Positions 27,801 through 42,800 of a DNA stretch of 64,000 bases are shown here, piece after piece. The translations under genes were made by a program, and so were the position numbers. The notes beneath the pieces are model-generated. The model ran no database searches. It saw only the letters and a list, made by a program, of their open reading frames with translations, and was not told where the DNA came from. This DNA is from Schmidtea polychroa (Eukaryota), in NCBI GenBank assembly GCA_044892525.1, contig CM097885.1:24802001-24866000 (forward strand), given 5' to 3'. Positions within the stretch are counted from its first letter, which is position 1. The number at the start of each line of letters is the position of its first letter.

Positions 27801-30800
27801 GTGTCTAATTAAGGATTTAAAATAAAAACTTGGAGAAAATTGACTGAAAATATAACTGACATTATTCATTTAATTAATTTTCATAAAGTAAAAATGAAGA
27901 AATGAAATAGTTATTTTAATGAAAAACATTTTCTTGAATCATTTGGTATAGGCTTGTGCAGGGTATATGTGAAATTGAAAATGTAGGCCCCATTTGAAAA
28001 TAATCAAGAGATGTTTTACTATATATATATATATATAAGATTATATTTGTAAAATAGTTGAGTCTTCAAAGTGTTAGATCAGTTTATAACGGTCACCCAT
28101 CAAAACAGTCTCATCGTATCATTTTATGAAACCCAATAGATATTAGATATAGTTTGAAACTACCTAGATATTTATAAAATGCATTTATAGAAAGAGGAAT
28201 AATTTAAAATGCTACAATTTTAAAACACTCAAATAAAGTGGAGAAAATATATCAATTTTTATTTAAGTTCTCCAAGAATCAGTTAAATTATAAGATTCTA
28301 AAAATTAATTAATTAATATTTCAACCAATCAACAGCAAACAGTTTATTTCCCTTTATTGGGATGAATTAATTTTTTAAAATTATTTACTGATTTATAACA
28401 CAATGCGTAAAATAGTTTATGATAAAAATTTTAAATGTGCGAAATAAAATAATATGTACTAAAAAAATAACAAAATGTTTATTAAAAGATTAATTACAAG
28501 TTAATAATAAAAATACTTTTAATGCGAAATTTGAGCTTGGTGTTTTTTGATAATTTCTTCTAAATATGAACTAATTGTATCAAAAATATGTTTGCCAGTT
28601 GTAAAATCAGGTAACTCAACATAAGACAACATAAAAATTGATTAATTATATCATTTTCGTGAATAAATCTAACTAACTTGATCTTTGCCTGTAATGTCTG
28701 TTGTTTCGTCGATTTGTAGAGCAAAATTTGAATTTGCAAGAGTTTAAATATATTATATATCTAACACTTTTAAAATTTCGCTGCACATCAAAGTGCCGCT
28801 GTACAGTGGTTAAGAATCACTGAGCTAGGGCAATCGCACTGAGCTCCCTATGCTTGAGAGTCCCAGCATATTAAATACTTCTCCAATAGCGGGAAAATGG
28901 CACAAATTGAAAGAGAAAATCAAGATGGATTAACAATACTGTCGATTGAAAATTGATTACAATGACATGATTGATGAATTTCCCACAAAAAAAAGCTCTA
29001 AAAATTGCTTTATAATTTTTTTTAGTATCAGCACGGCACTGAAATCCAGTACCATGTGAAAATATACTAATAAATAAAATACAAATTTATGTGTAAGTTT
29101 GGCAACCGTGATTAACCAATGTTTCAAGTCTTTCTCGTTATTGCCCTCAGGTAAGCAACTCGATATGAAATAATTCTCTATATCTAAATATAAATGTAAC
29201 AGAAAAGGAAATGAGACTAATTGACAAATCTTTTACAGAGATTTTCTTTAGCAAAAGCTAATGTATCAACGTCAAAAAGACAATTATAAAGCGTCTCTAA
29301 CCTCTTGGTTGATCTAGCCAATTTCCTGGTGGTTTACATATCCAATGGAACTCCAGGACATGCTCTTTATTCATTTGGAAGGATAGCGGTTTCAAAGCTT
29401 CATTGTTTATCGAAAAACTGAAAAATAAAAAGTTTTTAATTTTAATTGAAAAAAGCTTTTCGGATAATTGAGTTCTCAGAGTATTAACCAAGCAGATCTA
29501 ATGAAATTCTGGTTTTACCAAATTTACCATTTTTAATAAAAACACTAAAACGCCAAACAAATGAAATATATTTCAAGGAAATTATCCTTATCACGAATCT
29601 ACAATCATAATCTATGTCAACAATTATATATGGAAACAATAATGAAGTAATAGAGTAGTAGGATGTGTCACCACTGGCACATGTCACCTCTGGCACACTA
29701 CCCCCCGGGGGGGGGGGGGGTAAACGAAAAAAGAAATTTTTTTTCAAGGTCAAATTTTAAACAAAGACATATGACTCATCAAGGTCTTTGAAACAAAGAC
29801 CGTGGCTCATCCTATGACTCATCAAGGTCACTGAAACAAAGACCATGACTCATCAAGGTCATTGGATGACTCATCAAGGTCATTGAAACTAAGACCGTGA
29901 CTCATTCAAGCTCATTGGATGACTCATCAAGGTCATTGAAACTAAGACTATGACTCACTCAAGGTCATATGATGACTCACTCAAGGTCATATTTTTAAGG
30001 TCAAGGTCATATTTTTAAGGTCAAGGTCATATTTTTAAGGTCAAGGTCATATTTTTTAAGGTCAAGGCCATATTTTAAGGTCAAACCTTCACCAAAGGGT
30101 ATCATTCGAAAGGTATTTGAAAGGTCTATCTAATGGTCATACCCTCGAAGGTGTATGGTGGGTCCTCGGCCTTCAAAGGGTCAAAAACCTTCGAATTTTT
30201 TCAAACTTTATCATATATATATCATTCGAAAGGTATTTGAGAGGTCTATCTAATCGTCATACCCTCGAAGGTTGGTCAAAAACCTTCGAATTTTTTCAAA
30301 CTTTATAATATATATATATCAGTCGAAAGGTATTTGAGAGGTCTATCTAATGGCTATACCCTCTAAGGTATATGGTGGGTCAATAACCTTCAAAGGGTAT
30401 CCAAAATTAAATATTTTTCAAATCATATAATATATATATCATTCAAAAGGACTTTTGATGGTGAGTTCGAAGGTCCAAGGGTCTAAGGGTCCAAGGTTCA
30501 AAAATTTTAAAACCTTATAATATACATATCAAACAAAAGGTATTTGAGATGTAAGTATCATGGTCATACTTTCAAAGGTTTATGAATGGTCCTGAACCTT
30601 CAAAGGGTCCAAAACCTTTAAAAATTATACATATAGATACATAAATGTCAAATAAAAGGTAATACAAAGGTGAGCATGATAATCATACCCTTGAAGGTCA
30701 TACCCTCGAAAGGGTCCAAGGTTCAAATTTTTTAAAACCTCATAATATACATATCAAATAAAAGGTAATACAAAGGTGAGTATGATGGTCATACCCTTGA

Positions 30801-39800: not shown

Positions 39801-42800
39801 GATTTAAATAAAATAAAATTATTACGTATTCGATAATTAAAGCAAAAATAAAAATAATATATAATCAACGATTTAAACAAAATTAAATTATTACGTATTC
39901 GATAATTAAAACAAAAAAAAATAAAAATATTATTATATAATTAACAATTTAAACAAAATTAAATTATTACGTAAACAAAAAATAAACCGCTGGAACAAAA
40001 ATAGATGTCTTTGTTACTAAAAATAGAACGACCTTGGTGAGTCATCGGATCAAAAATGTTACTAAAAATAGATGTCTTTGTTACTAAAAATAGAACGACC
40101 TTGGTGACTCAGCGACTGAGTCATTGTCTTTGTTTAAATTACCTTGATAATTAAAACTTGATGATAATAATAATAATAATAATAATAATAATAATAATAA
40201 TAATAATAATAATAATAATAATAATAATAATAATAATAATAATAATAATAATAATATTAATAATAAATTTTGAAAATATCTTCGAAAATAATAATAATAA
40301 TAATAAATAATAATAATACATTTGATAGTAATAAATAATAAATTCCATGTGCGCGTCATTGCATTTGTTCAAAAAATAAATGAGTCATCGATGAGTACTT
40401 TTTTATTACCGTTTGATTGATATGTATATTATAAGGTTTGAAAAATTTAAACCTTGGATCCTTGGACTCTTTGACCTTCAAACTTATTCATCTTTGAATT
40501 ACCTTTTGTTTGATATGTATATTATAATGTTTCTAAAATTTGAACCTTGGACCCTTCGACCTATGGACCTTCGAACTCACCTTTGAATTACCTTTTATTT
40601 GATATGTATATTATGAGGTTTTCAAAAATTTGAACCTTGGACCCTTTCGAGGGTATGCCCTTCAAGGGTATGACCATCATACTCACCTTTGTATTACCTT
40701 TTATTTGATATGTATATTATGAGGTTTTAAAAAATTTGAACCTTGGACCCTTTCGAGGGTATGACCTTCAAGCGTATGACCATCATACTCACCTTTGCAT
40801 TACCTTTTATTTGATATGTATATTATGAGGTTTTAAAAAATTTGAACCTTGGACCCTTTCGAGGGTATGACCTTCAAGGGTATGATTATCATGCTCACCT
40901 TTGTATTACCTTTTATTTGACATGTATATATCTATATGTATAATTTTTAAAGGTTTTGGACCCTTTGAAGGTTCAGGACCATTCATAAACCTTTGAAAGT
41001 ATGACCATGATACTTACATCTCAAATACCTTTTGTTTGATATGTATATTATAAGGTTTTAAAATTTTTGAACCTTGGACCCTTAGACCCTTGGACCTTCG
41101 AACTCACCATCAAAAGTCCTTTTGAATGATATATATATTATATGATTTGAAAAATATTTAATTTTGGATACCCTTTGAAGGTTATTGACCCACCATATAC
41201 CTTCGAGGGTATAGCCATTAGATAGACCTCTCAAATACCTTTTGACTGATATATATATATTATAAAGTTTGAAAAAATTCGAAGGTTTTTGACCCTTTGA
41301 AGGTTATTGACCAACCTTCGAGGGTATGACGATTAGATAGACCTTTCAAATACCTTTCGAATGATATATATATGATAAAGTTTGAAAAAATTCGAAGGTT
41401 TTTGACCCTTTGAAGGCCGAGGACCCACCATACACCTTCGAGGGTATGACCATTAGATAGACCTTTCAAATACCTTTCGAATGATACCCTTTGGTGAAGG
41501 TTTGACCTTAAAATATGGCCTTGACCTTAAAAAATATGACCTTGACCTTAAAAATATGACCTTGACCTTAAAATATTACCTTGACGAGTCATCATATGAC
41601 CTTGAGTGAGTCACCATATGACCTTGAGTGAGTCATGGTCTTTGTTTCAATGACCTTGATGAGTCATCCAATGACCTTGAATGAGTCATGGTCTTTTTTC
41701 AATGACCCTGATGAGTCATAGGATGAGTCACGGTCTTTGTTTCAATGACCTTGATGAGTCATATGTCTTTGTTTAAAATTTGACCTTGAAAAAAAATTTT
41801 TTTTTCGTTTACCCCCCCCCCCCCCTGGGGGGTAGTGTGCCAGAGGTGATATGTGCCAGTGGTGACACATCCTACTACTTAATAGTTTTAATTTAATGAG
41901 TTAATTAAATAATTTCAATAAATTTGTTGCTGATTTGATGTTAATTGTAGGAGATTGTGATTTATTCACCAATGTTTCACATAAAATTTTTACTAATAAT
42001 GTTTTATAATAATTTCTAGAGTTGCTTATTTCAACCAAGATAATAATTACCAATTACAAAATTTATTTAATGACTTATTTTATTTTCTATATTTTAGTAT
42101 TATAAGAACATTTTTTTCAAATTTTACCACTGATTTCTTTTTCATTGTATTTATTAAAAAGCTTGACTATGAATCAGTAAATATATCGATGTTTTTGATA
42201 TTCACGAATTTTCGGCACTGCCTTTTTCGAGTGAATATGTTCTTATATTTTAATAATTTGAAATTTATAAAATAATTATAGTGTTTTATTTTTCACAGTT
42301 AAAAGACAAAACTTGCATAATAAGTATTGTCACGGTCTACGGTCCCCACATTATTATGACAGTCTTATTTATTGTGGATTTTAACATTTCAGTTTCTTTT
42401 AAAATATAAATGACTTTCTTTTATATTGTTTATGGTATGATTATTCTGTCACAAAGGGTCCCGCTTTTTCTCTACCGATGAAAAATGTCCCATTTTTCTT
42501 GTTCTGTATTTGAGGAGTCTTTTATAATTTGTATCCACAAACAAATCGAATGGATTTCCAAATGTTTTAGTCTCAGTGTTAGATCATTACGGATAACGGT
42601 TTATTCTTTTACATTATTGAGACTTATTGTGGTGTATAAGTCGAAAAGGGTGATTAACTGATTCTGAAAAGATCCCGGATTGAGAAATTTAATTTGTGTC
42701 TTTGGGAGTTGACATAGCAGAATAACTATGAGTTCTAGAAGCACTACTAACTAGCCCCTGTCATGTATTGTTTAATTGTGAAAATTTTTATTTTTATTAT

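Follow-up and report, generated by a model that had tools for sequence, protein, structure and literature searches.

The stretch of DNA analyzed here, the window, comprises 64,000 nucleotides of Schmidtea polychroa contig CM097885.1 (assembly GCA_044892525.1, forward-strand positions 24,802,001 to 24,866,000). It harbors a 12.2-kb foldback element (Table 1) whose termini read AGTAGTAG(GATGTGTCACC) at 29654 and CTACTACT at 41879, and which is bounded by two copies of the hexamer TAATAG. Inspection of the sequence revealed that the flanking DNA outside these two copies is unrelated. Maverick (Polinton) elements have the end motif (AGT)2//(ACT)2 or (AG)3, and (AGT)2 ends together with a 6-bp target-site duplication (TSD) are marks of this class (PMC8097293). 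Both the end motif and a TSD of the expected 6 bp are present in the element. A preliminary description, made from the letters of the window, had proposed a 12.2-kb foldback with Polinton-type ends and the TSD TAATAG, and inspection of the ends and a BLAST comparison of the window with itself bore this out.

The self-comparison returned a single inverted match for the element (29654-34172 against 41879-37003), in agreement with the ~4.5- and ~4.9-kb arms around a spacer first described. At 4,519 and 4,877 bp, the arms fall outside the published class of terminal inverted repeats (TIRs) of about 50-1,500 bp; that Polinton TIRs are normally short, as the preliminary description also stated, accords with reported ranges of 46-1,447 bp (PMC8097293) and 100-1,500 bp (PMC10748475). 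Aligned with each other, the two arms have 65 mismatches across 4,466 aligned columns; 464 columns are gaps, mainly in repeat arrays, and the difference in length comes largely from tandem arrays and (ATT)n tracts. Most of the substitutions lie in the outer ~640 bp. The outer 292 aligned nucleotides contain 9 mismatches and the inner arm from 32800 to 34157 (1,358 nt) contains none, and several of the outer substitutions are private to one end when compared with 60 other ends. There has been recent arm-to-arm copying: the inner arm was copied onto an older end, or one end was exchanged afterwards. The outer region is also rich in two short units: TGACTCA occurs 23 times in the element versus 10 times in the remaining 51.8 kb of the window, and TCAAGGTCA 34 times versus 2. 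In sequence the two units are similar to AP-1 and NR5A-type sites, respectively. Further copies of a ~95-bp motif with a near-perfect 16-bp palindrome are anchored at 32825 and 34277 (+) and at 36380, 38350 and 39632 (-), and the motif is also found close to the ends of the helper Polintons described below. Judged by position only, several pivots of foldbacks in the same family lie close to the copy at 34277.

At the inner end of the left arm, the junction with the loop displays AT microhomology and a short tandem duplication. With up to two mismatches allowed, the junction sequence had one match genome-wide, and no copy with this arm length other than the window element was found, whereas the preliminary description had suggested a search for others. 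Among the public sequencing runs listed as containing the sequence, none was an RNA run. Contigs from public runs contained the end sequence in three of four runs, next to many different flanks; no listed piece joined the window flank to the end with 31 letters on each side. The core of the element is a mosaic of two subfamilies and includes a recombinant patch, whose arm portion is found in the left as well as the right arm. Along most of its length, the loop differs from that of its closest relatives (L143, L148, L056 and L033) at 0-6 positions per 250 nt, and these relatives carry the core in single copy. What had been called a spacer is indeed a loop here but is arm sequence in many relatives.

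The gene content of the element was analyzed by tblastn with 30 proteins of enzyme-coding Polintons of the same genome, hereafter helpers; the queries included protein-primed family B polymerase (pPolB), integrase, ATPase, protease, putative capsids and accessory proteins, and the element matched only two RING proteins. No pPolB gene was found with six pPolB queries, no retroviral-like integrase gene with the helper proteins, and no ATPase, protease or capsid gene by tblastn or in a Pfam scan of the loop, in which none of the six frames matched. The claim that core genes are absent was thus upheld. An Rfam scan of 29600-37100 returned no matches. The RING-finger (C3HC4_3) gene lies in both arms as identical mirror copies. 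It is spread over three frames, lacks the first zinc-binding pair, and in pieces shares 85-89% amino-acid identity with the 108-aa RING gene of family E Polintons. RING genes are intact in other arms of the family, which we refer to as satellites, and broken in the window copy: the 108-aa frame was intact at 26 of the 58 homologous sites examined, four of them in helpers. The ratio of nonsynonymous to synonymous change (dN/dS) was 0.19-0.29 between helper and satellite and 0.23-0.69 among satellite copies (few changes). We rejected the idea that RING is host-captured cargo, because it is a native accessory gene of helper Polintons. A 43-codon open reading frame (ORF), considered as a conserved gene, was likewise rejected, as its frame varies among the 37 copies examined; it is probably not a gene. 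Of the gene-carrying arms in the preliminary description there remains, accordingly, one broken RING gene, and this duplicated gene is native to Polintons. The loop, in which we found no open gene, was also considered as a decayed gene, which is unsupported, since no frame matched Pfam and codon periodicity is absent; against two diverged homologues, 7 of 24 and 8 of 33 gaps are multiples of three. Homologues of the loop at 65-76% identity (L123, L127, L115 and L144) occur within further foldbacks and next to different end types; the loop sequence is old, shared and apparently non-coding.

Table 1 Features of the foldback element and of the Polintons compared with it (window positions unless a contig is named).
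Feature	Position	Strand	Remark
Whole foldback element	29654-41879		12.2 kb; G000:C1:24831654-24843879
Left TSD, TAATAG	29648-29653	+	
Right TSD, TAATAG	41880-41885	+	
Outer region rich in TGACTCA and TCAAGGTCA	29654-30290	+	~640 bp; most arm-to-arm substitutions
Subterminal tandem arrays and (ATT)n tracts	30100-32810		unit number unequal between arms
Motif with near-perfect 16-bp palindrome	31740-31840	+	~95 bp
Left inverted arm	29654-34172	+	4,519 bp
Right inverted arm	37003-41879	-	4,877 bp
Central loop, family core sequence	34173-37002		2,830 bp
Arm/loop junction	34160-34185	+	~6-nt AT microhomology, ~10-nt tandem duplication
Recombinant patch out of another subfamily	36923-37422		arm portion in both arms
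Broken RING-finger (C3HC4_3) gene	33169-33662	+	
Mirror RING copy	37513-38006	-	identical to left copy
43-codon ORF	33870-34001	+	mirror copy 37174-37305
pPolB foldbacks, other families	C3:32532201-32547693; C1:126056156-126072149; C1:235383158-235396433; C1:139677856-139690446; C1:264964907-264972309		pPolB in both arms
Polinton type representatives	L053/54; L131-138; L139-142; L171-174		types A; E; F; G

A 27-nt end sequence had 300 exact matches in the genome, compared to none for a control. Nine paired elements of 15-25 kb were taken from this list for study. All nine have matching 6-bp flanks and seven contain pPolB sequence; the other two are a chimera of helper and satellite and a satellite with a nested insertion. 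In the chimera (L055/L056, C1:69945032-69962900), a helper left half with ATPase and integrase is joined to the satellite core, with one TSD. Pfam named integrase, A32 ATPase and C5 protease among the helper genes, and a long helper ORF contains Exo and Pol motifs and shares 27% identity over 1,149 aa with a PF03175-positive pPolB. A PDB search with the family A pPolB and a phage search with the putative capsid returned no match. Helper TIRs that align cleanly are about 0.6-1.5 kb long. The outer ~640 bp of the window element is 84-92% identical to the ends of family A Polintons, and all eight pPolB-carrying elements with the window end type have a family A pPolB. Autonomous copies with the same ends, which would be expected from the preliminary description, thus exist with pPolB, integrase, ATPase and protease genes and a putative capsid gene. 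The ends shared with enzyme-coding Polintons of the same genome support the view that the window element is a non-autonomous derivative, and we regard its descent from a Polinton as nearly certain. From the shared ends and the length of the TSD, it was very probably moved in trans by a helper. Two other helper ORFs were noted in L134. One, of 145 aa (5127-5561), is a TBP-like gene (PF00352, E 1.3e-15); the other, of 103 aa (7637-7945), matches Bcl-2 weakly (E 0.028). Furthermore, a distant Polinton family, B, with Pfam-positive capsid and pPolB, is repeatedly nested in other Polinton-type elements (L037/38, L064/65, L114 and L116/117).

The satellite core was found under four end types, each with 6-bp TSDs. 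Long elements with these end types carry pPolB in 24 of 25 cases, and the remaining one has Polinton integrase and ATPase. In a sample picked by length among the matches listed on contig C1, as distinct from a genome-wide census, the end type predicted the pPolB type in all 24 pPolB-carrying elements (8 A, 8 E, 6 F and 2 G). Types A, E and F are alike in putative capsid (98-99% identity), ATPase (99%) and integrase (91-96%); their pPolB proteins share 52-66% identity, lowest at the N-terminus. Across the four types, near-identical putative capsid, ATPase and integrase are accompanied by a distinct pPolB and an end sequence proper to each. In phage phi29, origin specificity is set by the polymerase and the terminal protein (PMC2175359), which by analogy would fit the pairing of end and pPolB. 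The satellites L087 and L101 have loops that are 99.4% identical over 850 nt, yet they differ in end type on the left and the right alike; in each arm, their common sequence breaks off 630 bp outward of the marker. The simplest explanation is a single end exchange with subsequent copying from arm to arm.

The same evidence bears on whether the window element could instead be of the Foldback/Galileo kind, with a cut-and-paste DDE transposase as its mobilizing enzyme. Galileo TIRs are likewise long and internally repetitive (PMC3573991). However, the ends of the window element also terminate elements that encode pPolB, a Polinton-type integrase, ATPase and protease, they combine (AGT)2 with a 6-bp TSD as Mavericks do (PMC8097293), and RING is a Polinton gene. 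We therefore assign the ends to Polintons, as had been proposed, and give a DDE origin next to no likelihood.

The family is abundant, with 1,125 genome matches to a loop marker and 1,540 to a RING marker, family E helpers included. Our marker surveys covered the first 100 matches per list, and elements were picked by length, mostly from contig C1. Dispersed enzyme-less copies carry different TSDs. The first 100 of the 1,540 RING-marker matches included 20 inverted pairs within 13 kb, all of them convergent and none divergent, and three direct pairs, where chance would give about 1.5 close pairs irrespective of orientation; inverted pairs were present at 20 of 80 RING-marker loci. We examined 20 foldback loci, 19 from these pairs (the window's own was left out) and one from another list. 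In each of the 20 the arms are inverted. Their best matches reach 96-99.8% identity over 0.8 to about 10 kb, the pivots are many, the loops range in size from almost nothing to 2.4 kb, and 15 loci have matching TSDs. A unique arm segment of ~620 nt had no arm-to-arm differences at 19 of 21 loci, one in L109 and 15 in L049 (one locus was skipped), versus 0-20 differences from the nearest other locus. In some relatives the identity extends to the outer ends (0/350 in both L075 and L097). One pivot is shared by L089, L099 and L103, each with a different TSD, indicating that foldbacks are mobile. The foldbacks at C1:42675806 and C1:42834067 also have the same pivot; they lie 158 kb apart, and the hexamer TCTCTT borders the first on its right and the second on its left.

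These surveys raise the possibility that the window element arose from a near-complete palindrome with arms of 7-8 kb and a loop of <1 kb, by loss of the inner left arm and loop and later exchange of one outer end. Such palindromes are a common form in the family, the loop sequence of the window element is arm sequence in most foldbacks examined, and the junction displays microhomology. In addition, 66 one-mismatch loop-marker matches gave inverted pairs at 18 of 48 loci, counted by eye. By contrast, the 34 exact loop-marker matches listed gave four close inverted pairs, again by eye, the closest relatives (L143, L148, L056 and L033) have the core once, and an extra end exchange is required. 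We consider this route quite unlikely.

Foldbacks are not confined to satellites. Inverted pPolB pairs numbered five among 91 scored matches (5 of 86 loci), and all five are foldback Polintons with 6-bp TSDs. One of them pivots inside pPolB with almost no loop. Two pPolB foldbacks enclose at their center a short element of a different end type (L112:4726-6393 and L119:4590-5806), which is bordered by mirror copies and not by a direct TSD. In a control with reverse transcriptase (RT), 150 matches included two inverted pairs whose members lie within 17 kb of each other, both around Polinton genes, which ties foldback formation to Polintons in this sample and argues against a general artifact. 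Retroelement RT lies in both arms, and Polinton integrase/ATPase in the loop, at C1:16649153-16671949 and from C1:106844563 onward (L191-L197). Foldback artifacts are known from long reads (PMC12870357), and an artifact of assembly or long reads was weighed for the window element as well. Its direct 6-bp TSD and unrelated outer flanks, its 2.8-kb loop, and arms that differ in repeat numbers and private sites all argue otherwise, as do the pivots shared by separate loci and the RT control; this explanation is very improbable.

We propose that the window element is an enzyme-less Polinton whose arms were extended during helper-driven replication by a ~4-kb copy of the right inner arm onto an older left end, and we hold this account to be reasonably probable. 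Helper integrase and pPolB would serve in trans an element excised as a linear molecule, which would be copied by protein-primed strand displacement. The growing strand would first switch to the opposite arm, within the homologous terminal repeats, and would return in a second switch at the AT microhomology at 34172/34173. Because the arms differ most at their tips and are identical in their inner part, this account requires either two switches or an end exchange at a later time. The preliminary description had suggested growth of the arms by copy-back: the identical inner arms sustain arm copying, but not the one-step version, which predicts arms identical to the tip and was rejected for the window copy (9/292 at the tips versus 0/1,358 inside). 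End exchange would further provide the satellite's route from one helper polymerase to another.

Several observations weigh against this proposal. Neither an intermediate of replication nor a free linear form was observed. The window junction was found once and is equally explained by in-place repair, and the private outer-end substitutions are not given by simple copy-back. The elements were selected by length among the first 100 matches per list, mostly on contig C1. Five of the 20 foldback loci are without matching flanks or an intact second end, and the arms of L049 derive from two subfamilies (15/662). Pfam did not directly name the helper pPolB or capsid, and the 406-aa putative capsid rests on a weak match (E 0.008) and gene position. 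Helper TIRs are unequal, with 0-39 mismatches in the outer 350 nt, indicating that ends are not homogenized at every round. Finally, at two loci the inverted match extends 830-850 bp past the element ends. At C1:182003413-182013026 and C2:126893834-126918321, flanks that are inverted copies of at least 830-850 bp take the place of the TSD.

Some of these observations suit a different account, in which the left arm lengthened once the element was in the chromosome: its terminal repeats would have suffered a break that was repaired with the right arm as template, with a copy tract reaching 4 kb inward. The unique junction, the older outer ends beside a fresh inner tract and the inverted matches past element ends are as this account would have it, and the retroelements in both arms of two Polintons show copying that followed a retro-insertion. 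The TIR-extension model for Galileo gives the same product (PMC3573991). However, inverted duplicates are frequent in Polintons (20/80 RING-marker and 5/86 pPolB loci) and absent in 150 RT matches save inside Polintons, and shared pivots at different TSDs and symmetric end replacement better fit a replicating free form. Growth in the chromosome is thus possible, though rather unlikely, and we somewhat favor arm copying during replication.

The preliminary description had likened the element to a defective-interfering genome; interference with the helper, which would mark such a genome, and packaging by it are putative here. More tentatively still, and with less than even confidence, the family might constitute a satellite system: an abundant enzyme-less replicon that persists as a giant hairpin, its arms copied one to the other in protein-primed replication, that hops between four helpers via exchange of one end, which is then copied to the opposite end, each polymerase reading its own end only, and whose hairpin transcripts could silence helpers. 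To our knowledge, Polinton replication has so far been inferred from gene content and not watched. Multi-kilobase Polinton foldbacks with identical inner arms and symmetric end replacement are the traces expected of a linear strand-displacement replicon, and the foldback family would provide an indirect record of Polinton copying and, if the proposal is true, a fossil record of replication. The four ends paired one-to-one with four polymerases, over one capsid/integrase module, form a natural set for studying origin specificity. One satellite accompanies all four helper types, which suggests an arms race with replication origins at stake. The window locus is one copy among many, and it is the family as a whole that is of interest; long inverted repeats in their hundreds also matter for genome stability and annotation. 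Elsewhere in the window, outside the element, are an AT-rich 234-bp near-palindrome (20920-21153), a perfect 134-bp palindrome (50017-50150) and a 259-aa open frame (26117-26896, -), a candidate hAT-type transposase fragment.

Copy-back cases have been described for phi29 and adenovirus, as have palindromic phi29 replicons and adenovirus end repair, and non-autonomous Polintons are present in Repbase. In a literature search that left most subscription papers and Repbase outside its reach, we found no report of multi-kilobase foldback enzyme-less Polintons or of end exchange between helpers, and the part of PMC6431247 available to us contains nothing on foldback Polintons. Expansion of Polinton inverted repeats has been reported before, according to the Galileo paper, which cites a 2007 review (PMC3573991). 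The window element resembles autonomous Polintons/Mavericks in its (AGT)2 end motif, 6-bp TSD, ~640 bp of end sequence and RING accessory gene (PMC8097293, PMC10748475), and differs in lacking pPolB, integrase, ATPase, protease and capsid and in having arms of 4.5-4.9 kb versus 46-1,500 bp. Snap-back/copy-back genomes of adeno-associated virus (AAV) similarly have one end region in inverted duplicate and depend on a helper (PMC8235507); unlike them, the window element is integrated with a TSD and has non-identical outer ends. Integrated fungal linear plasmids with adjoining long inverted repeats provide another analogue (PMC1864894). Galileo copies with extended TIRs also recruit internal sequence to their TIRs and have TIR tandem repeats and subfamily chimeras, but they use a P-superfamily transposase and their TIRs reach ~1.26 kb (PMC3573991), whereas here the helpers are Polintons and the arms several-fold longer. 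Turnover of replicative end modules is a published hypothesis for Polinton-like viruses (PMC11296320), and nematode Polintons have swapped pPolB with TIRs conserved across the swap (PMC10748475). Both share with our Polintons a common morphogenesis module and differing replication genes; in contrast to the nematode swaps, end sequence and pPolB here change together (24/24, in one genome), and the satellite follows all four types. Butterfly polintons include copies with ~2-kb gene-containing TIRs and mobile polintons lacking polB (2026 bioRxiv preprint 10.1101/2025.02.07.637071), and parallel the satellite in TIRs extended over genes and in movement without a polymerase of their own. The satellite differs from these in having no core gene at all and arms of 3-10 kb at many pivots, and it is present in hundreds of copies or more, with ends exchanged between polymerase types.

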